NCBI GenBank assembly: GCA_964571295.1
Contig: CAZNAO010000001.1
Coordinates: 3,749-67,748 of the forward strand
DNA length: 64,000 bases
Origin: an uncultured Gammaproteobacteria bacterium
GTDB taxonomy: Bacteria; Patescibacteriota; Patescibacteriia; Magasanikbacterales; UBA922
Direction of reading: 5' to 3'
This document shows positions 38,810 to 58,600 of this stretch, one piece after another. The number at the start of each line of letters is the position of its first letter. Within the stretch, counting starts at the first letter, position 1. Made by a program: the position numbers and the translations under genes. The notes below the pieces were generated by a model. That model was given only the letters and a program-made list of their open reading frames with translations, made no database searches and had not been told where the DNA came from.

Positions 38810-39556
38810 ATGGTTGAAGTGAGTGAACTCAAAGCGCTCGGGCTCAGTGAAACTGAAGCGAAGACCTATCTCGCACTTCTTGAACTCGGTTCTGGATCTG
38901 TTGCTTCGATTACCCACCGCGCCGAGATCACTCGCACCCTTGGGTATCACTCACTTGATCGGCTGATCGAACTAGGGCTCGTTGGGCAAAAAAGTAATAC
39001 ACATCCTGCAGAGTTTCACGTGAAACATCCGAAAAAAATATTTGATTACCTTGAAAAAGAGAAAACAACCTGGATAACGCGTATTGAGTACGCTAGAAAT
39101 CTCTTGCCAAAACTTGAGTCCTCATATACAATGCTCCAGCACCCTTTTCTTTCACAACACATTGGAAAAGACCGGGTTTTGGAATTGTATAGAACATTGT
39201 ATACAAATAATACTTCACTGATTTCTCTCTTTAACCCGACCTTCAGTGACCCCGAGCTCCTTGGTGAGCTTTCTGAAATCAAAACAATCGGGTACAAAGA
39301 TACACACTTCTGCTGCGTCTTTGACACGCCAGAAGCCCGACAAGCAGTTTCTACTATTCAAAATCAGATGCTTTTCCATTGGATAAACACTTCAAATGTA
39401 CACATAGATGTATACAAAAGTATTGAAACGATAGTTGCAAACGACACGCTCTACACACTTAGTACCAAAAACGGTGAGTTATACATGGATTGCATTACTC
39501 ATGAAGCTACGGTAAGCGGAATGTACAGACTATTGTATACATTAATACATATATAA
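38810..39556 (+). CDS. TrmB-family transcriptional regulator
   Basis: N-terminal LGLSETEAKTYLALLELGSGSVASI is the TrmB winged-helix signature. Followed by a terminator hairpin, CCTGTTTC-atgt-GAAACAGG, at 39559-39578. Confidence 0.75.
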   Translation: MVEVSELKALGLSETEAKTYLALLELGSGSVASITHRAEITRTLGYHSLDRLIELGLVGQKSNTHPAEFHVKHPKKIFDYLEKEKTTWITRIEYARNLLPKLESSYTMLQHPFLSQHIGKDRVLELYRTLYTNNTSLISLFNPTFSDPELLGELSEIKTIGYKDTHFCCVFDTPEARQAVSTIQNQMLFHWINTSNVHIDVYKSIETIVANDTLYTLSTKNGELYMDCITHEATVSGMYRLLYTLIHI

Positions 39557-42267: not shown

Positions 42268-42645
42268 TTATACCAATAAGCGTGCTTTTTTGAGTATTGA
42301 TTCAATATCTGCACTAATTGTAGCAAAATCTGCACTGAATAGTTTTGGAGTGGAGAGGAATGCAATAACATGTCCCTCACGAATCCGCCCATCTTTAAGA
42401 AGCAGTCGTACCACTTCACGCATCTGCCGCTTCACCCGATTGCGCCCTACGGCCTTCTTTTCATGTTTTACGCTCGCGACAAACCCGATCTTCAGATCAG
42501 TGTCCGTGTACCCTCGTTTGGGATACTTATCAGGATCGATCTTCCAGATTTTTGCATTTACTACTTTGCCTACAATAAAACGCCCTTCGGCAAAGAGGAT
42601 TTCAAAATCTTTCATTCGGGTCAATCTGAATTCATGTGGAAGCAT
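42268..42645 (-). CDS. rnpA: ribonuclease P protein component
   Basis: ATG at 42645 (MLPHEFRLTRMKDFE...). Basic protein with VGRNRVKRQMRE, the RnpA motif. Position downstream of rpmH. Confidence 0.8.
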   Translation of the reverse strand: MLPHEFRLTRMKDFEILFAEGRFIVGKVVNAKIWKIDPDKYPKRGYTDTDLKIGFVASVKHEKKAVGRNRVKRQMREVVRLLLKDGRIREGHVIAFLSTPKLFSADFATISADIESILKKARLLV

Positions 42646-42742
42646 ACATTGCTTGAGGGGACTGATCACGACGGATCAGCCCCCTTTCGTATTGCGTATG
42701 CTCCTCCTTTGCAGCACACGCATTTCATAGTATAAACAACAA

Positions 42743-43407: not shown

Positions 43408-43539
43408 GACGGTTTTCCTCGCTATTCTGCAGTGCGCATCTATGGAACCACCCGGCTCACACAGAGGTGCACACTAGTAAACATGAAAATCGCCTAGTTG
43501 TCAATAATACTTGTTTGCAAAGATTCTGTTTTTCCTTTA

Positions 43540-43570
43540 TTATCCACACCATCCACAGGTAATCCACACT
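43540..43570. promoter_or_regulatory. DnaA-box cluster upstream of dnaA
   Basis: TTATCCACA (43540-43548), then ATCCACAG and AATCCACAC in tandem, in an AT-rich context. Confidence 0.6.
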
Positions 43571-43647: not shown

Positions 43648-45036
43648 ATGACCAACTACGAGATTTGGCAGGCAGTGCTTGCCGAATTTGAACTCACTCT
43701 CTCGAAAGCGAATTTCACCACCTGGTTCAAAAATACCGGTATTGCTAACTATGAGAATGGGAATGTTGTAGTCTGTGTCCCCAATGCATTCACCAAAAGC
43801 TGGCTGGAAAAGAAATATCACGCCACCATTGTCAAAATACTTGAACGCGTCACTGGTAAACCGGTCAAAAAAATCGATTATACGGTCGACAATGTACGCA
43901 ATATCAAAGAGCAGGAGTGTACTCCTCTTTCGGTCGAAGCTCCTAAAGCTCCGATTATTCATGCCCCAATCACCCCGTTACCCAAGAAAGCCTTGTTGGT
44001 GCAACAATTCGGACTCAACCCCAAATACGTATTTGAAACCTTTGTCGTCGGAAAAGGAAACGAGCTTGCTCACGCCGCGGCACAAGCTGTCGCCTCACGT
44101 CCGGGAGATGCGTATAATCCTTTGTTTATCTACGGAGGAGTCGGACTGGGCAAAACCCACCTGATCCAGGCTATCGGGCACACCATGCTTGTCGCAAATC
44201 CCAATGTAAAGATTCTCTACGTAAGTTCTGAGAAATTCACCAATGAATTTGTCGCTTCGGTCAAAGAAGGACGTGCAAAAGAATTCAAAGACCGCTACCG
44301 CAATGTCGATCTTCTTCTGATTGACGATATCCAGTTTATCGGCGGGAAAGAACAAACCCAGGAAGAATTTTTCCACACGTTTAATGAGCTCCACCAGCAA
44401 GGTAAGCAAGTGGTCATGACGAGCGACCGGCCACCCAAAGCTATTCCAGCTCTTGAGGACCGTCTTCGCAGCCGCTTTGAATGGGGGATGATTGCGGATA
44501 TCTCGGCCCCTGACCTTGAAACCCGAATGGCGATCATCCAGAAGAAAGCTCAGGAACGCCAATTTCCAATCCCTCCTGATATCCAAACGCTCATCGCAAC
44601 GAATGTACAGAGTAATATCCGTGAACTTGAGGGCGCTCTTAATAAGATTATCGCATTCCATGAACTCAAAAATACGGTTCCGACTGATGAATCCATCCGT
44701 CACATTCTCTCTAGCTTCCAGGAACAGAACATGCGTCGCTCGCTTACCCCGAAGAACCTGATTGAGGAAGTAATTAAGTTTTACGATCTCAAATTGGAAG
44801 ATATTGTGGGGAAAAGCCGGGAAAAACGCTTTGCTTTCCCGCGACAAGTCATCATGTATCTCATGAGAGAGGAATTGAAACTGTCTTACCCGAGCATTGG
44901 TGAGGAACTTGGCGGACGGGACCATACCACTGCCATGCATGCACACACCAAAATCACTCTGGAAGTTGATAATGATCTCAAACTTAAGCAGGATCTTGAG
45001 CTTATCAAACAGCGTTTATACACAAATAAAATTTAA
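43648..45036 (+). CDS. dnaA: chromosomal replication initiator protein DnaA
   Basis: N-terminal MTNYEIWQAVLAEFE..., AAA+ Walker A GGVGLGKTHL, and C-terminal DNA-binding helix ...LGGRDHTTAMHAHTKI. Confidence 0.95.
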   Translation: MTNYEIWQAVLAEFELTLSKANFTTWFKNTGIANYENGNVVVCVPNAFTKSWLEKKYHATIVKILERVTGKPVKKIDYTVDNVRNIKEQECTPLSVEAPKAPIIHAPITPLPKKALLVQQFGLNPKYVFETFVVGKGNELAHAAAQAVASRPGDAYNPLFIYGGVGLGKTHLIQAIGHTMLVANPNVKILYVSSEKFTNEFVASVKEGRAKEFKDRYRNVDLLLIDDIQFIGGKEQTQEEFFHTFNELHQQGKQVVMTSDRPPKAIPALEDRLRSRFEWGMIADISAPDLETRMAIIQKKAQERQFPIPPDIQTLIATNVQSNIRELEGALNKIIAFHELKNTVPTDESIRHILSSFQEQNMRRSLTPKNLIEEVIKFYDLKLEDIVGKSREKRFAFPRQVIMYLMREELKLSYPSIGEELGGRDHTTAMHAHTKITLEVDNDLKLKQDLELIKQRLYTNKI

Positions 45037-45282
45037 ATTCTGTGCATAACTGAGGGAAAAATATGCATTTTAACTGGGGACGATGATGTGGGTAAGTAAA
45101 AGTTTTCCACACCCATGGTGGATAGTCCAAAATATACACACGCTTTGTTCAACCTTTGTTCTCCATTTATCCCCACACAAAAATGAAATATTTTGCTAAA
45201 ATAAGCCACTAAATTGAATTATCTACCGTATCCACAGCCTCTATTATTATCTTCTAGATTATATAAATAAAAAGAAAGAAAT
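45037..45282. other. candidate oriC (dnaA-dnaN intergenic region)
   Basis: At least four DnaA-box-like 9-mers (TTTTCCACA 45103, TGGATAGTC-rc 45118, TTATCCCCA 45167, TATCCACAG 45229) plus an AT-rich stretch TATTATTATCTTCTAGATTATATAAATAAAAAG just before dnaN. Confidence 0.6.
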
Positions 45283-46410
45283 ATGAAATTAACATCCACA
45301 CGAGAAAATTTATTGTATAGTCTTGAGATAGCGAATTCATTTGCAGGTAAGCATGCTAACTTACCGATATTACAGAATGTATTACTTCGGGCACATGAGT
45401 CAGGAGTTGAAATCAGTGCAACCAATCTCGAAGTTTCTATTAAAACGCATATACGTGCAAAAGTAGAAGAACCAGGAACTTTTACTGTTCCCGCCCGTAC
45501 GCTTACCGAATATGTGCGTCTCCTTACAAACGACCAGGTAGAACTTTCTCTTGAAGGGTCAGAACTTATCGTACGTTCGGCTGGCTCGGAAACCAAAATA
45601 AAAGGATTTCCTGCCGATGAATATCCGGTTATTCCGGGTATTGAAGAAGGGCATACGTATCTGATCAAGGCGGAATCATTTCGTGAGGCGATTGGGCGTG
45701 TCGTGGTGTCATGTGCAAAGAACGAAATACGGCCTGAATTTTCCGGCGTATTTTGCCGTTTCAATAGCGAGCGTTACTCAGGTCTTCTTATGGCAGCAAC
45801 CGACTCGTATCGCTTGTCTGAAACCCGTATTCCTTTGGCACAGGGTGAGGATCCTGAGGTTACGTGTATCATTCCTGGGCGTGTCATGTACGAGATCGCG
45901 CGCCTGATACAATTGGGCCGGGGACATGAAGGGGAAGAAAACGTCAGGTTGACCGTGAGTACTAATCAGGTGGCGGTCAGATATGATACATTTGAGATGG
46001 TTAGCCGATTGATCGACGGGCGTTATCCGGATTATACACAGATTATCCCTACTTCGTTTAAGACACATGGAACATTTTCCGTGAGTGAGATGATAAACAA
46101 GATCAAGGCAGCGAGTTTGTTTTCAACTGCCGGAGTGAATGCGATTTCGTTCAGCTTTGATGCTGAAAAAAAACAGATAGCCGTTGCGTCAAACAGCACT
46201 CAGACGGGTGAGCATGTTTCATATATCGATACTGCCGTAGAAGGGGATACACAGTCAGTACTTCTCAATCATCGGTACGTACTTGATGGATTGCAACAGA
46301 TCGAAGCGGATGAGGCAGAGATCGAATTAACAACGCCAGACGCACCCTGCCTCATTCGGGTCAAGGGAAATGAGACATTCCAGTATATCGTGATGCCGAT
46401 CAGACAATAA
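45283..46410 (+). CDS. dnaN: DNA polymerase III beta sliding clamp
   Basis: MKLTSTRENLLYSLEIANSF...LPILQNVLL... typical DnaN N-terminus, three-domain length, and position after dnaA. Confidence 0.9.
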   Translation: MKLTSTRENLLYSLEIANSFAGKHANLPILQNVLLRAHESGVEISATNLEVSIKTHIRAKVEEPGTFTVPARTLTEYVRLLTNDQVELSLEGSELIVRSAGSETKIKGFPADEYPVIPGIEEGHTYLIKAESFREAIGRVVVSCAKNEIRPEFSGVFCRFNSERYSGLLMAATDSYRLSETRIPLAQGEDPEVTCIIPGRVMYEIARLIQLGRGHEGEENVRLTVSTNQVAVRYDTFEMVSRLIDGRYPDYTQIIPTSFKTHGTFSVSEMINKIKAASLFSTAGVNAISFSFDAEKKQIAVASNSTQTGEHVSYIDTAVEGDTQSVLLNHRYVLDGLQQIEADEAEIELTTPDAPCLIRVKGNETFQYIVMPIRQ

Positions 46411-51440: not shown

Positions 51441-52958
51441 TCACATTTTGGTACGGAATTGTAGTGCTTCTGCAATGTGCTCTGTCCCAATCATGTCTAC
51501 GTCTGCCAGATCCGCAATCGTACGGGCAACTTTGAGTAATCGGTGGAAACTGCGGGCAGAAAGATTCATGTGCGATACGGCCTGCCGCATGAGCTCAAGC
51601 GATGTATTATTTAATTTGCAAAATTCTTTCAACTCTCTGTTTTTCATCTCAGCGTTAGTTTCAATAGGGAGATTGATAAAACGCCATGTTTGTCGTTGTC
51701 GCGCTTTTTCTATTCGATTCCTGATTGATTCTGATGATTCACTGGTTTCATCTCCTGATAGTTTTTCAAACTCCACGCGCGGAACCTCTACATGCAAGTC
51801 AATCCGGTCAAGCAGGGGGCCACTTATTTTTTTCTTATATCTTTCAATTTGTATCGGTGTACACGTGCATATATGCGCCGAATCGGTTGCGTACCCACAG
51901 GGACATGGATTCTGACTTGCGACCAGCGAGAAACGGGCAGGGAACGAAAGCGTTCCTTGTGCGCGTGAGATGGTGATTATCCCGTCTTCGAGCGGTTGTC
52001 GCAGGTTTTCAAGTACGATTCGCGGAAATTCTGGAAACTCGTCGAGAAATAAAACACCCCGATGTGCTAGTGAAATTTCTCCTGGCTTTGGAAATTTTCC
52101 TCCACCAACTAAGGCAACACCGGAAGCACTGTGGTGGGGTGATCTAAACGGACGTGTTGAAATAATCGGGCGATCGGTCGGCAGTAATCCTGCAACTGAA
52201 TAAATTTTGGTAACCTCAATTATCTCGGCGACGGTCATTCTCGGGAGTATTGAAGGAAGTGTTCGTGCAAGTAGCGTCTTTCCTGAACCAGGAGGTCCAT
52301 TTAGAATAATATTGTGCGCTCCAGCTGCTGCAATTTCGAGTCCACGCTTTGTGAACTCTTGTCCTTTGATTAAAGACATGTCGAGATCGTGCGCATAAGT
52401 ATGTGCCCATTGAGTGACATCTGCAGGTGGTTGTGGTGCGATTCGTTTGGTACCAGTGACATGTGCGATTAATTCAGCAAATGAGGTAACCGGATAGATC
52501 GTAATATTCGGAACGATTGATGCTTCTTCAGCGTTTACTTTTGGTACAAATATCGAGGGTATGTGATGTGTTTGCGCAAAGATGGCAAGTGGAAGAATTC
52601 CGGTCGTGTGGCGCAGAGTTCCGTCGAGTGCGAGTTCGCCAACAAACAGCGACTGAGATATATCACATGCAATTTTTTCTGCAGACAAAAACATCCCAAG
52701 TGCAATTGGGAGGTCATACGCAGATCCTTCTTTTCGCACGTCCGCAGGTGCGAGATTCACGATGATTCTGCTGTTTGCCGGAAACGGAAGATTGGTATTT
52801 TTCCACGCAGTTCTGATGCGCTCACGCGCTTCTTGTATTGCCGTATCAGGCAAACCGACAATGGTGAATCCGGGCCAGGTGCCGGATATGTCAACTTCAA
52901 TCGTGATGGGCGCGCACTCAAGACCGAGCACAGCGGCCGATGGAACGGTAGTAAACAT
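51441..52958 (-). CDS. comM: YifB/ComM-family Mg-chelatase-like AAA+ ATPase
   Basis: SD AAGGAGGG before the ATG. Lon-like N-domain, Walker A NGPPGSGKT, and a C-terminal ChlI/ComM helical domain. Confidence 0.8.
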   Translation of the reverse strand: MFTTVPSAAVLGLECAPITIEVDISGTWPGFTIVGLPDTAIQEARERIRTAWKNTNLPFPANSRIIVNLAPADVRKEGSAYDLPIALGMFLSAEKIACDISQSLFVGELALDGTLRHTTGILPLAIFAQTHHIPSIFVPKVNAEEASIVPNITIYPVTSFAELIAHVTGTKRIAPQPPADVTQWAHTYAHDLDMSLIKGQEFTKRGLEIAAAGAHNIILNGPPGSGKTLLARTLPSILPRMTVAEIIEVTKIYSVAGLLPTDRPIISTRPFRSPHHSASGVALVGGGKFPKPGEISLAHRGVLFLDEFPEFPRIVLENLRQPLEDGIITISRAQGTLSFPARFSLVASQNPCPCGYATDSAHICTCTPIQIERYKKKISGPLLDRIDLHVEVPRVEFEKLSGDETSESSESIRNRIEKARQRQTWRFINLPIETNAEMKNRELKEFCKLNNTSLELMRQAVSHMNLSARSFHRLLKVARTIADLADVDMIGTEHIAEALQFRTKM

Positions 52959-53035: not shown

Positions 53036-53494
53036 TTATTTTTTTTGTTTTTTCAGTAACAATAAAACTCCTACTATAACCATCACGTCTGCAAGATTGA
53101 TGATCGATGTTATGATGCGGATATAGTCGATGGTAAAACCGAATGTGATCCGGTCGATCAGGTTTGAGAGTGCTCCTGCAATAATAAGCGACGCCGCAAA
53201 CAAACGCACGGAGTCTGTTTTTGATTTTTTGACGTAATATATTCCTGCACTAATAATTACGACTGTGAGTGGAATTACGATTATATGTGGAATCGGAATA
53301 CCAAAGGCAATGCCGGTATTTTCGAAATATTCCCACCCGAGCATTCGCTCAATTACATAGTGTCTACTTTCCGGATTGGTTCTCGCGCCATATTTCAGTA
53401 GTTGATCGAGGACTATACCAAAAACGCCACTGAGTATGAGTACCCTTTGGCGTTTGAGCGACGGCTGTAGGCTTGTAAAAAAGTTATACTTCAT
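53036..53494 (-). CDS. lspA: lipoprotein signal peptidase II
   Basis: ATG at 53494 (MKYNFFTSLQ...) overlaps the upstream gene's end by 10 nt. Motifs NTGIAFGI and ...LIIAGALSNLIDR...FNLADVMVIVGVLLLL. Confidence 0.75.
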   Translation of the reverse strand: MKYNFFTSLQPSLKRQRVLILSGVFGIVLDQLLKYGARTNPESRHYVIERMLGWEYFENTGIAFGIPIPHIIVIPLTVVIISAGIYYVKKSKTDSVRLFAASLIIAGALSNLIDRITFGFTIDYIRIITSIINLADVMVIVGVLLLLKKQKK

Positions 53495-53903
53495 CAGTAA
53501 GGAATTTTTTTGCCTCAACCGTACTATTCGAAGTCGGGCGGGCACGAAGACGTTTTTCCCCGATTGGTTTATTGGTAAATTTGCAAATACCGTAGGTTCC
53601 CGCATCGATTCGTTTGAGTGCTGATTCCACATCGCGTAGTTGTTTTTCAAGCACTCCTTCAAGAGATTTATTAGTGATAAAATCTTCCACCTCATGCGCA
53701 TTGTCTTCGGGCTCGGTGCCGTATTTGGGAAATATCGCATTAGTATCTCCTGCGATGCGAGGATTTTTTACGGTAAACGTCCCCAATTCTTCTTCGAGCT
53801 TTCGTTTCTGTTCTAGCAGGGCTTGCTGCATTTCTCGTACAAACTCAGGCGTAAGCCCGGAATCAGGATGTACTTTGATACCAGGGGTGTTTTTCTTTGG
53901 CAT
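53484..53903 (-). CDS. DksA/TraR-family protein with a degenerate zinc finger
   Basis: Coiled-coil N-part; C-terminal GTYGICKFTNKPIGEKRLRARPTSNSTVEAKK retains one Cys of the usual C4 finger. Confidence 0.55.
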   Translation of the reverse strand: MPKKNTPGIKVHPDSGLTPEFVREMQQALLEQKRKLEEELGTFTVKNPRIAGDTNAIFPKYGTEPEDNAHEVEDFITNKSLEGVLEKQLRDVESALKRIDAGTYGICKFTNKPIGEKRLRARPTSNSTVEAKKFLTDEV

Positions 53904-54428
53904 ACGTCATGGGTTAATTGATCTTGGTGGGTAGTATAGCAGAAGGGCTTTAAAAGACGCAAGATTTTTGGAAATAAAAAAACGGCCATCCGTAGGCCCG
54001 TAGTGATGATACTATGTGGCTGGAGGCCGTTAGTTTTCAAGGGTTGGGTCTTTCTCAAGCACTCTCAATCGTTAGGGCATAACGACTCAGATAGCTTGAG
54101 AAAAGCCAGCGATTCCCTGAAAATGTATAACCTGATTGACCACTCAAAGGGTGTTGAATCGGCATTACTGCCATACTCAGACCGTATTTGTTTTTGTTGT
54201 TGGTGTTTATTCCGACGAATCGGAACGGTGAGTAGTCTAATCGGTATATGGTGTGTTCGAGGCGCGAGGCCGAACATCACGTTATCAAAGATCAACAAAT
54301 ACAGTATAGCATATTTTGAATATATGGTCAAGGATTTTAGATAAACCCGTTTTATTTCGCTTTATTGAGCAAAAAAATGTGTATTTTTGTAAAAATCATT
54401 TGTCTATACCAGTGTATACAAATACACA

Positions 54429-54520
54429 CTTATCCCCATATATGTGTACTTTTCCACACACTTATCCCCAATGTCTAGAGTATTGTATACAATTTTATAA
54501 TTTTTTGGGTGGATATCCTG
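54429..54520. promoter_or_regulatory. second cluster of DnaA-box-like motifs in a ~700-nt ORF-poor region
   Basis: TTATCCCCA (54430), TTTTCCACA (54450), TTATCCCCA (54462), and GGTGGATATCC (54509; rc TATCCACC). The same TTATCCCCA variant occurs in the dnaA-dnaN intergenic region. Confidence 0.35.
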
Positions 54521-54751
54521 TGTGTATGATGAAAATGCTTAGTAGAATATTGAAGACGTCTGTCTATTAGGAAGAGAGATCTGTGATTGTTATAAAAAAT
54601 TGCTACATTGAGCTAAAATATCGCCTAAAAGGATTGACAAAATCTTTGGTGTGTACTATACTTGCTCGTTACCAATGTTGGTGACAGTGTTCCTTACAAA
54701 AACGTAGGCACCTATGCCTGAGCTCTGTGCTCGAAAATAGGAGGAGTTCTC

Positions 54752-55540
54752 ATGTTCAGCAAAAACTTCGTTTTCATGATCATCATCCTTCTCGGTGCGT
54801 GTGATGCGGACTACTACGTCGAAGACAGTGATCCGCAACATGGGATCGTCGAGGTCTCCCGGTGCATCGACAGCTTCACCTGTCCCGCGGGGTACGAGTG
54901 TGGTTTTGATCATCGGTGTGTTTTGGTCGAGAGTCAGGAAGAACAAAAAGTGCTTCTCGATCCTGAGTGCAGCGACGAGATCGATTACGTCGTCCGATCT
55001 GTATATCCTCGCACGCCTGATTCTGTCGGGTATGGGGTGGTGGTGAAACTCTCTGACATGGAGAGTGTCCAGGATGTCGAGCTTCTTGAGTTCGAGATCA
55101 GCGCCTGTCGGTACATCACCTTCGACCATCCTTCTGTGTGGATCGAATCGTATGGAGTTTCCGTAGACGAGGAAAATCAGAACGCTGCTGACCCTGAAGG
55201 TGTTATCCTTCCGGACTGGTCGACGAGGTTTTACGACTTTACCATCACTGAAGATGGCGAGGTTGTGTACTACGAAGAGGTTCCTCATGAGATGACTGTT
55301 GCAGATACTAACTGTAGCGCCCAGTTCCATCAGGGTTCTCCTCGAGCGATGGTACCTGGTGAGACGGTAGTATTCACGTTCAGTGCCTCGATCCGTTCGG
55401 AGTTTCCTACCTCGTCCTCGTTCACTGTGGGTGAGCCTCGCTTAGGTTTCAGCATGCCACCGAGTCCGAACCCGTTCGATCGACGTGTTCCGTGGGGTAC
55501 GCACATCACGTATCCACAGATGGTCTTGATCGTTCCTTAG
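54752..55540 (+). CDS. hypothetical acidic lipoprotein (higher G+C)
   Basis: AGGAGG SD 6 nt upstream. Signal plus lipobox MIIILLGAC. Cys-containing acidic product; no family recognised. Terminator hairpin at 55571-55600. Confidence 0.65.
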   Translation: MFSKNFVFMIIILLGACDADYYVEDSDPQHGIVEVSRCIDSFTCPAGYECGFDHRCVLVESQEEQKVLLDPECSDEIDYVVRSVYPRTPDSVGYGVVVKLSDMESVQDVELLEFEISACRYITFDHPSVWIESYGVSVDEENQNAADPEGVILPDWSTRFYDFTITEDGEVVYYEEVPHEMTVADTNCSAQFHQGSPRAMVPGETVVFTFSASIRSEFPTSSSFTVGEPRLGFSMPPSPNPFDRRVPWGTHITYPQMVLIVP

Positions 55541-55665: not shown

Positions 55666-58600
55666 ATGAAAGAACAATGGAGGGAAGTGGTACTTATTGT
55701 TTTTCTTGTTGCGATAAGTATTTTTTTGTTTTCAAAACAGGCTGTGACTGTCTCTGAGTCAATTATCATTACTGAAATTTGTCCGAGCGGATGCGCTCTT
55801 ACTGATCACCAATGGATAGAGATATATAACAAAAGTTCGGAGCCGATTGACTTAGCTGGCTGGAAATTCTGGGAAGGTGGGGTAAACCATGGGCTTACCC
55901 TGAGTCCGAGTAGTACCGTAACTTCCACTATTCTCTCATCGGGCGCATATGCAGTTATTACTCAGAATGATCGCATATTTTTTGGAGACCATCCTAGTGT
56001 TACCTCAACGGTGTTTGATAGCGCATGGACTACACTTACTAAAACCGGTGAGGAGATCGGGATTAAAAAGGGAAATGGAATTGATGATTTTGTAGAACAA
56101 TTTGTCTACGCCAGTGTAGACAAATATTCACTTGAGCGCATACATCCGAATGGAGATCCTGCAAGTATGCTTGAATGGAAAGAACATCCTGACGCTTCTA
56201 CCCCTGGATCGGAAAATTATTGGTGGGTGCAGAGTGGGGAAGGATCTGTAAACCGTATTCCGTATGCACAGTTTACTCTACCCACCTCAACCCTTGTTGG
56301 TGAGACTGTTATATTCGATGCATTCGCTTCGAGTGATTTTGAGGGGTTTATTGAACGATATGTGTGGATGATTGAGGGGCTGGAATATGAAGGGGTGAGT
56401 GTGGAGTATGTGTTCACTGCAACCGGGACGAAACATATTTCACTTACCGTATATGATACAGCATCTGCTTCAAGCACGATTTCGCGAGATATTGAAGTGG
56501 TATCTCTCACTGATGATGAAGAAATTATCCAACGTCCGCCTCCAAGAATTTTTATTAATGAATTTCTTAGTGATCCACATAGTGGAGAAAAAGAATGGAT
56601 TGAATTATACAATTCGGAAGATGGAGATGTGGTGCTTGGTGGATATACTCTCTATGATGGTGTCGGGAAAATTGCGAACGTGACCGGAACTATTGAAGCA
56701 TTCGGATTCCGAACCGCGTATCTCACTTCGAGTAAATTGAATCAGACCGGAGACCGAATCGTGCTTATGGATCCTACGGGAGATGTGGTTGATAGTGTGT
56801 CTTATGGAAATTGGGAGGATGGAGACATCACCGATAACGCGGGCGCGCCTAAGAAAGGCTATTCGACCGCACGAAACAGTGATGGGGAGGATACGGATAT
56901 CGATCAATCCGATTTTTCGTATACGATCACTCCAACACCAAATTTTCCGAATAATATTACCGCAGATCCAGTACCCGTGCCGCCTCAAGTCGTGAATTCT
57001 CCGATCGTCTATTCTCAAGAGGCCACACAGACAAAACTGACATTTCCTGATGGTAGTGTTGTAGTCAGTGAGTTCGTATCAGCTCCGTCTACCGGAGTAG
57101 TTGAATTTGTAGAATTGTATAACACGACTTCTGATTCAATTTCACTTGAAGGATGGATACTTCGTGATGGAAGCGGAGCGAATACCACACTCGTGGGTAC
57201 GATATCAGCATGGGGATTTTTCGTGATCGACAAACCGAAAGGAAGTCTGAATAACGCAGGAGACCTAATTATGCTTCTTGATCCAAGCGGAAAAGAGATT
57301 GACCGCGTGGTGTATGGAAATTGGAATGGTGAAGATAGTGCTGTTGCGGCACCAAGCAAAGGGCAGTCCGCGGCACGGACAGACAGCGTTTTTGATTTTC
57401 GAATTACCGATCTCATTACGAAAGGTTCGATAAACCAGATTGTCCAAAATTCTGTGTCGGGTGGTGATAGGGTGAATACTTCAACATCTTCGACACTTTC
57501 GTCTTCCGACAGTGATTTGTCTATTGATTTGTTTTCTCCTGAGTTTCTTCCGATCATTACTGAAGTGCTTCCTAATCCGCTTGGTGCCGACACACAGAAT
57601 GAATATGTCGAATTGTACAATCCGTTTGATCGCGATATTTCGCTTGCTGGATTATTTCTTGATGATATTGAAGGTGGGTCAAAACCGTATGCGTTTAGTG
57701 CGGATTCTATGCTTCGGTCACATGAATACCGGGTTTGGTATTCCAAAGATACTAAACTTTCTTTTGCTAATACGTCTGACAGTGTGCGAATTTTGGATTC
57801 TGAACACACGGTTTTACAAGAAGTGGAATATTTCGGGGCAAAAGAGAATAAGTCCTATACCTCTGGGGCCGATATGTGGTTCTGGACCTCTGAATTGAGT
57901 CCAAACACGGAAAATCCGTTGGCCCCTCTTCCTGATGTTGTCTCAGATACCAGAGCTAAAACAACTGCTGCAAAAACAGCCGTCAAAACGACGCTTGCGC
58001 AAGTGCGTAATTTTGATGTTGGTACACCGGTGACAATGGACGGCGTTGTGTTGGTGCCGCCTGGAGTACTCAGTACGCAATATGTGTATGTGGGTAGTGA
58101 ATCCGGTATTGGGATTCAAGTGTATTCGTATAAAAAAGAATTTCCTGAAATCGCTTCGGGAGATAAGGTGGTCATATCAGGTGAACTTTCTGAAGTGTCC
58201 GGTGAGATGAGGGTAAAGCTTGCCAGTCTTGGTGATGTAGAGCTTGTTCACTCTGCCACGACCACGCTTATTGCCCCATATCCAGTCGCAGTGGTGGATG
58301 TTGGGGAATCGTATGAGGGTGGTTTGGTAGAGGTTACGGGAGAAATTACCGGTGTTAAGGGATCATATATTTATCTTGATGATGGGACTGACGAGGTCAA
58401 GCTATATATCCGTGGAGGATCAGGAATTGACAAGAACATGTTTGTCGAAGGTGCTCGTGCGCGGGTTGCTGGCATCGTGCAAGAAACTAAGAGCGGCTAT
58501 CATATTTCACCGCGAGATCAGTCTGATGTGGTTGTTGAAAATAATGAAGTCCGAGGAGAAAAGATTGAAGCAGAAAATTCTCTGGAACCCTCGTATTCCT

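Follow-up and report, generated by a model that had tools for sequence, protein, structure and literature searches.

A conserved unit of putative DnaA boxes, palindromes and a structured non-coding RNA gene of a family absent from Rfam 15 upstream of dksA in Candidatus Magasanikbacteria

In a genome of Candidatus Magasanikbacteria (Patescibacteria/CPR), the stretch that separates a dksA-like gene from a lipoprotein gene very probably holds one conserved unit, which comprises a control region of DnaA boxes and palindromes, a promoter with a non-coding RNA of ~322 nt, and a separate promoter for the dksA/lspA/comM operon. The RNA belongs to a family that is new with respect to Rfam 15 and conserved in Candidatus Magasanikbacteria, with members also in Uhrbacteria and related Patescibacteria. 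The first-pass annotation of the window (the whole 64-kb stretch of DNA analysed) had offered a structured hairpin and a cluster of DnaA boxes as alternative readings of this region; both turn out to be parts of one unit made up of control region, RNA gene and dksA. In these genomes, annotation pipelines currently leave 600-900 nt ahead of dksA blank. The locus and its neighbours are as follows.

53904-54751: intergenic spacer between the dksA-like gene and the lipoprotein gene
54303-54331, minus strand: promoter of the RNA gene, TTGACC, 17 nt, TATACT, with a TG upstream of the -10 hexamer; near-consensus sigma-70-type
53976-54297, minus strand: structured non-coding RNA gene of ~322 nt, recognised by fold, homologs and covariation, without a conserved ORF
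53933-53962, minus strand: own promoter of the dksA-like gene, TTGCGT, 18 nt, TG-n-TATACT, located after the RNA terminator and before the dksA start codon
53484-53903, minus strand: DksA/TraR-family gene, the conserved downstream neighbour (Pfam zf-dskA_traR, weak)
53036-53470: lspA, after the dksA-like gene (Pfam Peptidase_A8)
51441-52958: comM-like gene, after lspA (Pfam Mg_chelatase)

In the proposed arrangement, a control region at 54520-54335 would present three DnaA boxes of one orientation, bracketed by two TGTATACA palindromes and followed by an A/T-rich element. The sigma-70-type promoter would then drive an RNA that folds into a 5' hairpin pair, a multi-branch domain exposing an A-rich strand, a rod and a structured terminator, and the dksA-like/lspA/comM operon would be transcribed from its own, separate promoter. 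The transcript (about 54297-53976, minus strand) and its ends are predicted from sequence signals. The 5' end was placed 6-8 nt downstream of the -10 hexamer, as its likely position, and the 3' end in a U7 tract at 53982-53976. The RNA promoter scores 10/12 with its TG in a promoter consensus scan, and the pattern TTGAC-N17-TATA(C/A)T is present in every aligned relative, L013 and L014 included. The intrinsic terminator was read from sequence and fold, the terminator scan having listed none here; in all homologs a T-run follows the terminator helix. An own promoter, an intrinsic terminator and a covarying structure are thus found together with the absence of a conserved frame, which are the marks of a stand-alone bacterial non-coding RNA gene. 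Within the 64-kb window it is present in a single copy, as judged by model searches.

The region had earlier been called ORF-poor, and this description was borne out. A 113-aa plus-strand ORF (54003-54344) has no more than 41 stop-free codons left in the nearest other species, a Pfam search with it and with an 84-aa ORF gave no match, and no reading frame was found to be conserved among the homologs. The suggestion of a degraded gene falls with the same lack of a conserved frame, together with frame-shifting indels and covarying helices.

The RNA is conserved in related genomes. Homologs with the same fold were found in more than 20 named genomes and about 60 metagenome loci, with full-length copies upstream of dksA in 13 other species, and each homolog gives the same architecture when folded alone. 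Spacer identity across species is 70-83%, while flanking neutral sequence diverges. Two models, R1 and R2, match further loci that always lie directly upstream of dksA on the same strand; they miss the most divergent homologs (L024, L029-L031 and L035-L039), which were recognised by promoter, terminator, fold and position. The same architecture occurs in Uhrbacteria and other CPR, and the RNA ranges from 300 to 440 nt among homologs. Synteny of the RNA locus with the dksA-like, lspA and comM-like genes holds in relatives, and in metagenomes a dksA-like gene follows 59 of the 61 independent module matches at a median distance of 755 nt, the stretch in between having a median fold z of -6.5. The linkage is not obligatory: in L047 the RNA is kept although dksA is missing, and in L027 and L040 no copy of the RNA precedes dksA.

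The RNA folds into seven helices without a closing stem between its 5' and 3' ends, and this multi-domain form is seen in at least 20 homologs. Minus-strand folding of a 331-nt stretch gives z = -7.0 and plus-strand folding z = -4.3, with no shuffle matching either. The elements, all on the minus strand, are listed from 5' to 3'.

54281-54296: P0, 5'-terminal small hairpin (GUUGAUC/GAUAAC) of the MFE structure; weakest helix, outside the covariation tests
54251-54280: P1 hairpin, with compensatory changes GAUGUUC/GAACA, GAGAUUC/GAAUCUC and GAAGUUC/GAACUUC in the alignment
54130-54245: 5' domain closed by the long-range helix P2 and enclosing P3, an A/C-rich single strand and P4
54245-54229 paired with 54146-54130: P2, ACUACUCA/UGAGUGGU plus CCGAU/AUCGG
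54226-54209: P3 with a UUCG loop, inside P2
54208-54184: G-poor, A/C-rich single strand, AAC AAC AAA AAC AAA, between P3 and P4
54183-54150: P4, closed by GGU/ACC, inside P2
54034-54123: P5, long nested hairpin with outer helix UUUUCAGGG/CCCUUGAAAA and inner rod 54107-54047
53976-54031: P6, intrinsic-terminator helix (ACGGCC.UCC/GGA.UGGCCGU) with an inner hairpin, then U7

Helices in both domains are supported by paired substitutions. In the 5' domain, 83.4% of cells are paired in a MAFFT-only alignment, compared with at most 44% in slid controls, and 14 of 33 pairs are changed on both sides, a value reached by none of 500 shuffles, which ignore phylogeny. Model R2, for this domain, scores 136 bits at the window. 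In the 3' domain, paired cells amount to 91.9% (MAFFT alignment) or 94.2% (model-fitted alignment), with register-shifted controls at or below 57%; pairs changed on both sides number 20/44 and 29/44, respectively, and again none of 500 shuffles, which ignore phylogeny, matches. P5 contributes 24 pairs that are 95-96% paired, with compensatory changes in 10 (MAFFT alignment) to 15 (model-fitted alignment), and in P6 nine of ten stem pairs covary (for example CGGCC/GGCCG, GAGGGU/ACCCUC, AGGCAC/GUGCCU and AGGAGA/UCUCCU). Hairpin loops differ among homologs and may be UUCG, GNRA or U-rich. Distant homologs begin with a UGUUG...CAACA hairpin equivalent to P0, and the GYGGU strand and A-rich tract recur in them. 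Most subclades carry a single-stranded (ARN)5-7 tract; since one (L030, L035 and L038) lacks it, the tract is not the universal functional site. A pseudoknot of the 5' end with GGUCAA was considered and set aside, as it is not kept in L008 when judged by eye.

The motifs that the first-pass annotation had placed in this region all lie at the positions it gave, including GCTGG at 54019-54023 and CCAGC at 54106-54110. Its middle helix, TCTCAAGC (54053-54060) with GCTTGAGA (54094-54101), and its inner helix, TCGTTA (54069-54074) with TAACGA (54080-54085) and the loop GGGCA, are present and form part of P5. The outer GCUGG/CCAGC helix does not stand, with only 3/5 positions kept in 14 homologs and no compensation; in its place, the comparative structure has the base of the long hairpin formed by an invariant GG paired with CC. 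The idea of a structured RNA gene was sound in kind, while its strand is minus instead of plus, and a molecule of ~322 nt with seven helices replaces the three-helix hairpin.

Upstream of the RNA promoter lies the control part of the unit, a region of putative protein-binding sites. A DnaA box was counted at no more than one mismatch to TTATCCACA.

54507-54515, plus strand: degenerate fourth DnaA-box-like motif GGTGGATAT, with two mismatches and an orientation opposite to the other three
54471-54492, no strand: distal 22-nt imperfect palindrome of TGTATACA type, directly abutting box 1
54430-54470, plus strand: three putative DnaA boxes arrayed in the same direction, TTATCCCCA (54430-54438), TTTTCCACA (54450-54458) and TTATCCCCA (54462-54470)
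54400-54421, no strand: proximal 22-nt palindrome of TGTATACA type, between the box array and the RNA promoter
54346-54379, minus strand: conserved element rich in A/T, which contains a GCT...AGC motif and precedes the RNA start by ~45-80 nt

Four DnaA-box-like motifs had been reported here. Three of them, starting at 54430, 54450 and 54462, are retained as boxes, and the fourth is not, although its core TATCC(A/C)C is kept at the same position in relatives. Box starts are 12 and 20 nt apart, and this spacing is fixed in 77 unique metagenome variants, with offsets of +21, +33 and +53 nt from the palindrome start. The window's own boxes include the non-canonical TTATCCCCA, while relatives have the canonical TGTGGATAA at the same positions. 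With three boxes in 41 bp, conserved in relatives, the array qualifies by sequence as a DnaA-box cluster outside oriC. It is the only site in the window with at least three boxes within 50 bp, which none of 150 Markov simulations matches, and the sole other cluster (at least three boxes within 250 bp) is the dnaA-dnaN spacer. Among metagenome loci, box density is 7.9 per kb in the module and 0.3 per kb downstream. Relative to the RNA start, the array is at 134-174 nt upstream, a long distance for classical repression.

The palindromes are also conserved. The distal copy stands beside the first DnaA box in all loci, and the proximal copy is a perfect palindrome in L133 (TTTGTATAGACTAGTGTATACAAA) and in L035. 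Elements of this type have six matches in the window against 0.09 expected. Extra copies of the palindrome exist, and in 11 loci TrmB-family genes occur close to the module, L096 having one directly beside it in divergent orientation; this is no more than suggestive of a palindrome regulon. The A/T-rich stretch is a conserved block of the form TTTTTT-GCTnAAnnnAGC-AAATAAA.

The most serious alternative holds that the block of boxes and palindromes acts mainly on replication, as an origin-proximal titrating or modulating site or an auxiliary part of oriC, with the RNA gene merely adjacent. In the window, where dnaA occupies 43648-45036, the block and the dnaA-dnaN spacer are 9.4 kb apart, and dnaA is found within 10 kb of the unit in at least nine species despite rearranged gene orders. 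In L034 the block comes directly after rpmH-rnpA-yidD and beside dnaA, and in L133 the RNA unit precedes rpmH-rnpA-yidD. The boxes are also helically phased and distant from the RNA start, and in Bacillus subtilis DnaA-box clusters outside oriC are known to restrain initiation in a position-dependent manner, some of them also regulating neighbouring genes (Okumura et al. 2012, PMC3245932). Against this, the block travels with the RNA gene instead of with dnaA, as no dnaA occurs within 10 kb of it in L014/L025, L030, L033 and L039. Neither is the block the origin itself, since cumulative GC skew reaches its minimum at 44-45 kb, at dnaA-dnaN, where six boxes occur in 213 bp, and the skew changes sign at ~45 kb, not 54 kb, and is positive throughout 45-54 kb. 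Given also that titration and promoter control are mutually compatible, a mainly replicative role is a possibility that we regard as rather doubtful. The earlier proposal of a DnaA-titration or regulatory locus gains from the conserved array and its fixed spacing, with the sites being putative ones.

Comparison with characterized DnaA sites brings out likenesses and differences. In the core of an E. coli DARS, DnaA boxes I and II face each other head to head. An element of the DARS type was rejected here, as boxes 1-3 are all head-to-tail and only the degenerate motif is inverted, ~37 nt away. Like the B. subtilis clusters outside oriC and the E. coli datA and DARS sites, the array is a cluster of consensus boxes that is intergenic and near but outside the origin. 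Unlike them, it has three to four boxes, all but one co-oriented, at fixed 12- and 20-nt spacing, and the putative array is bracketed by two palindromic operators and coupled to the promoter of a non-coding RNA. DnaA can also regulate transcription from promoters that carry boxes upstream, such as those of B. subtilis sda and dnaA. The gidAB-parAB promoter within oriCII of Pseudomonas aeruginosa is reported as another such case (PMC13438810). As at gidAB-parAB, boxes stand ahead of an origin-proximal promoter, an arrangement from which replication-coupled transcription may be predicted; unlike at those promoters, the predicted target is a structured non-coding RNA gene, and its boxes are found 134-174 nt before the start.

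Since the RNA is located directly upstream of dksA in the same orientation, with a terminator that ends 70-150 nt before the dksA start codon in the homologs, it could instead be a long cis-acting leader of the dksA-lspA-comM operon whose terminator is a regulated switch. Riboswitches and attenuators typically occupy the 5' UTR of the gene they regulate and rely on mutually exclusive terminator and antiterminator structures. Here, the terminator is followed by a separate promoter for dksA, whose extended -10 is conserved. Its CTTGC...TGnTATACT is conserved within an otherwise variable stretch in the alignment of relatives, equivalent promoters also follow the RNA terminator at distant loci, and its -35 hexamer is below the threshold of the promoter consensus scan. 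The terminator is a strong, long helix covarying in nine of ten pairs, and the covariation analysis of this helix turned up neither an alternative pairing nor a competing antiterminator. At 300-440 nt and seven helices, the RNA is also far above known riboswitch size, it has no Rfam match, and it is kept in L047 where dksA is missing. We consider a leader role improbable and retain the reading of a stand-alone gene.

The size, single copy, strong promoter, origin-proximal position and lineage-wide conservation of the RNA would fit a universal housekeeping RNA so divergent that current models miss it, whether RNase P RNA, tmRNA, SRP RNA or 6S RNA. RNase P RNA came into consideration because rnpA adjoins the unit in L034 and L133; moreover, the window carries rnpA, and Rfam searches found no RNase P RNA in the same 64 kb. 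The covariance-model check recommended by the first-pass annotation for tmRNA, RNase P, 6S and SRP matched no family. Rfam 15 at gathering thresholds returned only tRNAs in the whole window and seven relatives, and at E <= 10 the window region and five divergent homologs gave noise only. No RNase P, tmRNA, SRP or 6S model was found at E <= 10 in the window region and four of the five other homologs, and the noise match in L130 was RNaseP_arch with 7 bits, where the gathering score is 84.

Architecture points the same way. Bacterial and archaeal RNase P RNAs are marked by P4 pseudoknot strands, CR-I and CR-V, and the fold contains no P4-type pseudoknot strands. A tmRNA has a tRNA-like domain formed by its paired 5' and 3' ends and a tag reading frame; ARAGORN called 10 tRNAs and no tmRNA in the window, no Rfam tmRNA model matched, no tRNA-like domain is present and the 3' end is a terminator helix. 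The 6S and Ms1 RNAs are rods closed by end-to-end pairing with a large central bubble, and the fold shows neither a closing stem nor such a bubble, with no 6S family matching at E <= 10. SRP RNA, small or of Bacillus type, carries domain IV (helix 8) motifs with a conserved tetraloop; in the present family, hairpin loops vary, and no SRP family matched at E <= 10 in the window region and five homologs. A missed housekeeping RNA is accordingly very improbable, and an RNA outside the known families is preferred.

The sense strand is minus because, among helices of the homolog alignment, G-U pairs outnumber A-C pairs 105 to 41; the orientation of promoter and terminator and a model score at the window of 144.6 bits on the minus strand versus 42 bits on the plus strand further exclude plus as sense. 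Long inverted repeats can act in DNA and the region has weak ORFs, yet the same RNA-strand signature and strand bias, with a conserved promoter and terminator framing a structure that holds no conserved frame, make it extremely unlikely that no functional RNA is made and that the hairpins instead work as DNA, in a cruciform or a single-strand origin, or are left over from a decayed gene.

As to function, the RNA is predicted to be a stable trans-acting molecule, most likely serving as a protein-binding scaffold or sponge, with the conserved rod sequence and the A-rich (ARN)n tract as candidate contact surfaces. DnaA may occupy the box array and thereby couple RNA synthesis and, by titration, the amount of free DnaA to the replication cycle. 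A dimeric regulator would bind the palindromes, and a TrmB-family winged-helix protein, encoded in the window at 38810-39556, is the candidate for it. The 6S and Ms1 RNAs bind RNA polymerase, and CrcZ is an A-rich RNA that acts as a protein sponge. By speculative functional analogy, the present RNA is similarly an apparently abundant, stand-alone structured RNA with a single-stranded (ARN)5-7 tract in most subclades, and it neighbours a gene for an RNA-polymerase secondary-channel factor. It differs in having no rod-with-central-bubble shape, no Rfam match and an A-rich tract that is not universal. A 6S- or Ms1-like role for it beside the DksA-like RNA-polymerase factor is no more than a guess, and probably a wrong one.

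The RNA may also be compared with the orphan large structured bacterial non-coding RNAs, namely OLE, raiA-motif RNA and ROOL/GOLLD. As in those, the RNA is lineage-restricted and stand-alone, several hundred nucleotides in length, with many covarying helices, UNCG/GNRA-type loops and a conserved neighbourhood; unlike those, it has no sequence or structure match in Rfam 15 and occurs in Patescibacteria. We know of no DnaA-box/palindrome control region as a feature of OLE, raiA-motif or ROOL/GOLLD RNAs. Our search of the literature for a non-coding RNA of this kind in Patescibacteria or Magasanikbacteria, or for work on CPR DnaA boxes, found nothing.

Patescibacteria account for a large share of bacterial diversity and have tiny genomes; to our knowledge, almost nothing is known of their non-coding RNAs and cell-cycle control. 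In genomes of ~1 Mb, an RNA of 300-440 nt is probably not dispensable if Magasanikbacteria, Uhrbacteria and related CPR lineages all keep it with its promoter, terminator and control region. Time and again, large conserved structured RNAs have proved to be ribozymes or the cores of ribonucleoproteins. A model of the family can be made for use in annotation pipelines, and the box array offers a defined DNA target for studying the DnaA of an uncultivated lineage. The fixed array of DnaA boxes and palindromes before the RNA also provides a concrete, testable link between replication initiation and RNA regulation. A bolder proposal, which we advance tentatively and hold to be unlikely, is that an undescribed large structured RNA of CPR bacteria (Magasanikbacteria, Uhrbacteria and relatives) is transcribed from a promoter under DnaA control, so that DnaA directly sets the level of a housekeeping-type RNA. 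If this were true, the RNA might form the core of a new ribonucleoprotein or, alternatively, an RNA-polymerase-directed regulator that, with the adjacent DksA-like factor, would link the replication cycle to global transcription in minimal-genome bacteria.

The 848-nt spacer between the dksA-like gene and the lipoprotein gene holds an RNA gene and its control region. As the first-pass annotation had offered among its options, this is a structured non-coding RNA gene: it stands alone, is conserved and covarying, and has its own promoter and terminator. The window belongs to a Patescibacteria (CPR) genome of the Candidatus Magasanikbacteria group, the label borne by homologs of the flanking DksA-like protein and by their genome records. 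The features of the region and its surroundings are as follows.

Features of the RNA gene and its neighborhood (window positions)
43648-45036: dnaA, 9 kb left of the spacer
45283-46410: dnaN, 9 kb left of the spacer
53484-53903, minus strand: DksA/TraR-family gene, followed by lspA and then a comM-like gene
53962-53933, minus strand: dksA promoter, TTGCGT-18-TGcTATACT, between the RNA terminator and dksA
End at 53976, minus strand: RNA terminator, a helix followed by U7
Minus strand: RNA body, about 322 nt of structure
Within the RNA: P0 and P1, two 5' hairpins
Within the RNA: P2, long-range helix ACUACUCA/UGAGUGGU closing a multi-branch domain of P3, an A/C-rich single strand and P4
Within the RNA: P5, a long hairpin
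Within the RNA: P6, the terminator helix with an inner hairpin
54331-54303, minus strand: RNA promoter, TTGACC-17-TATACT with TG upstream
54752-55540, plus strand: lipoprotein gene

In all related loci, fetched by means of their DksA homologs, a gap of 600-1000 nt is kept upstream of dksA at 70-83% identity between species, and conserved blocks within it are the two promoters, of the RNA and of dksA, and the terminator. A profile search recovered full-length homologs of the RNA in 13 other species, each with the same architecture when folded alone. The sequence 53970-54300 folds much better than its shuffled versions, with z-scores of -7.0 for the minus and -4.3 for the plus strand. When the 3' domain is aligned by sequence only with MAFFT, 91.9% of cells are paired and 20 of 44 pairs have changed on both sides (best slid register 56%; no match in 500 shuffles, a control that ignores phylogeny and with which the slid-register controls and independent single-sequence folds agree). 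The 5' domain, treated likewise, has 83.4% of cells paired and 14 of 33 pairs changed on both sides (best slid register 44%; 0/500 shuffles). A model-fitted alignment of 19 sequences gives 94.2% and 29 of 44 pairs for the 3' domain (57%; 0/500), and nine of the ten pairs in the terminator stem covary. Because G-U pairs exceed A-C pairs (105 vs 41) and the model gives the minus strand 144.6 bits vs 42 for the plus strand, the functional molecule is the minus-strand transcript. Every motif listed by the first-pass annotation is present in its place; of its three nested helices, the middle and inner ones form the core of P5, while just three of five positions persist in the outer one, with no compensation.

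The layout upstream of the RNA promoter is shared by every relative. It consists of a palindrome, then three like-oriented DnaA boxes, another palindrome, an A/T-rich block and the -35 hexamer. The palindromes are 22-24 nt long and of the TGTATACA type, the A/T-rich block carries a GCT...AGC motif, and a degenerate inverted box lies farther upstream of the array. The suspected box cluster (54430, 54450 and 54462) proved to be the only one in the window with at least three boxes within 50 bp, and none of 150 simulations produced its like. Relatives carry the canonical TGTGGATAA at sites that read TGGGGATAA in the window. Boxes 1 and 3 (54430-54470) both have the latter form in the window, as they do in its two closest relatives, and the former in the rest (related loci L002, L015 and L005 compared); the variant also occurs once at oriC. 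In the window's species group the two boxes seem to have drifted jointly, perhaps along with the specificity of DnaA.

A metagenome scan for palindrome plus box, independent of dksA and the RNA, returned 89 loci. Of 77 unique variants, 29 have a second box exactly 12 nt past the first and 49 have a third box 32 nt past the first; box density is 7.9 per kb in the module vs 0.3 per kb downstream. Of the 61 loci with enough sequence, 59 have a same-strand DksA homolog after the module (median distance 755 nt). The intervening stretch ends in a T-run and has a median fold z of -6.5 (below -3 in 55/56 loci), and many of these loci are matched by R1, a model of the RNA. Linkage to dksA-lspA is strong but not absolute: L047 has kept the module and the RNA and lacks dksA, and the other exception is L117, where high-GC sequence follows the module and which may be a chimeric contig. 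Two Magasanikbacteria genomes, L027 and L040, have dksA with no RNA upstream.

Turning to the palindromes, the TGTATACA element has six matches in the window against 0.09 expected. Three 22-nt copies (39185-39206, 39396-39417 and 39521-39542; one without mismatch to the search pattern) lie within the coding sequence of a TrmB-family winged-helix regulator (38810-39556; Pfam TrmB, E = 6e-12), where they code for peptide repeats of the LYRTLYT type; the regulator might itself bind the palindromes on either side of the DnaA boxes. In 11 other loci a TrmB-family homolog is found no more than a few kb from the module (L096 1091-2209; L112 2305-4090; L119 4009-5850; L074, L122, L082, L028, L031, L032, L034 and L102). 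The L096 homolog and the RNA gene are divergently oriented, with the module in the spacer between them, and in L112 the element lies just upstream of the TrmB-like gene. An AT-rich spacer in L029 (4480-4860), about 4.5 kb from the RNA module, contains at least seven tandem 24-nt palindromes, TTTGTATACA-N4-TGTATACAAA, much as an operator array or a centromere-like site would; comparable clusters, each of four, occur in L112 and L119. In L068 (10021-10260, 9533-9630), the module of palindrome and three boxes occurs as two tandem copies about 150 nt apart, and one more palindrome lies directly against the -35 hexamer of the promoter for an 89-aa cysteine-rich (zinc-ribbon-like) protein. Since that copy adjoins another gene's promoter, the palindrome is predicted to control more than the RNA gene. 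The window also has a palindrome with three mismatches to the element, TTGTCTAC-GCCAGT-GTAGACAA (56102-56123), inside the gene for a large Lamin-tail-domain protein.

In more distant Magasanikbacteria the promoter, an RNA of 300-420 nt, its terminator and one or more boxes accompanied by palindromes persist; their sequences are too diverged for R1 or a second model, R2. The same arrangement and architecture are found in L130 (Uhrbacteria), in L133 (labelled Nomurabacteria; perfect palindromes and four boxes) and in L134 (another Patescibacteria), which has box-like motifs but no palindrome. Since dnaA is found no more than 10 kb from the unit of module, RNA gene and dksA in at least nine species, in differing arrangements, the unit is usually origin-proximal; in L034 the order is dnaN, dnaA, boxes, rpmH, rnpA, yidD, module, RNA, dksA. 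The unit moves with the RNA gene and not with dnaA. GC skew rules it out as the origin itself: the cumulative minimum, at 44-45 kb of the window, coincides with the dnaA-dnaN region, the probable oriC. Two to three DnaA boxes lie upstream of dnaA (43530-43570) and six within 213 bp between dnaA and dnaN (45016-45236), one being TTATCCCCA at 45167. The RNase P protein gene rnpA is nearby (42268-42669), and RNase P RNA was not detected anywhere in the 64-kb window.

That the boxes act in replication only is possible, if somewhat doubtful, and such a role is compatible with promoter control. For promoter control itself, DnaA would bind the predicted sites of the array and a dimeric regulator the palindromes as putative operators, and together they could link RNA synthesis to the replication cycle. 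Titration of DnaA near the origin is a further possible role of the array, by analogy with the DnaA-box clusters of B. subtilis (PMC3245932).

A role as a cis-acting leader of dksA is unlikely for the RNA, given the conserved promoter that intervenes between them. A divergent housekeeping RNA is slightly less likely again: Rfam 15, scanned for tmRNA, RNase P, 6S and SRP among others, gave nothing at gathering thresholds and only noise at E <= 10 for the window region and five divergent homologs, ARAGORN found no tmRNA, and the fold is without the defining features of RNase P RNA, tmRNA, SRP RNA and 6S RNA. A DNA-level hairpin or a gene remnant, the latter once entertained as a degraded gene, is highly improbable. 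The region is ORF-poor, as noted at first, and its ORFs neither match Pfam nor persist in relatives. Conservation of a reading frame is absent altogether: an antisense frame of 107 codons in the window is down to 41 in the nearest species.

As for the neighboring genes, the DksA/TraR-family protein (53484-53903) and its homologs have, in their alignment A3, one cysteine instead of a four-cysteine zinc finger, and the protein falls below the Pfam cut-off for this reason. In the window and the homologs lspA always follows, a pairing that resembles ylyA-lspA of Bacillus. Ahead of the lipoprotein gene lie a near-consensus promoter (TTGACA-17-TATACT, 54634-54662) and a leader of about 85 nt (within 54634-54751). 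The leader has one hairpin at 54668-54685 and another at 54706-54719; on the minus strand the latter resembles a terminator, and it is conserved in L002.

The RNA looks like a stable trans-acting molecule. Its likeliest protein-contact surfaces are the sequence-conserved P5 rod and a single-stranded (ARN)5-7 tract, which is missing in one subclade. From synteny alone, a role with the neighboring DksA-like RNA-polymerase factor is a guess. What emerges is a real and apparently undescribed family of structured RNAs, conserved in a major CPR lineage and coupled to a module of conserved DnaA boxes and putative operators.
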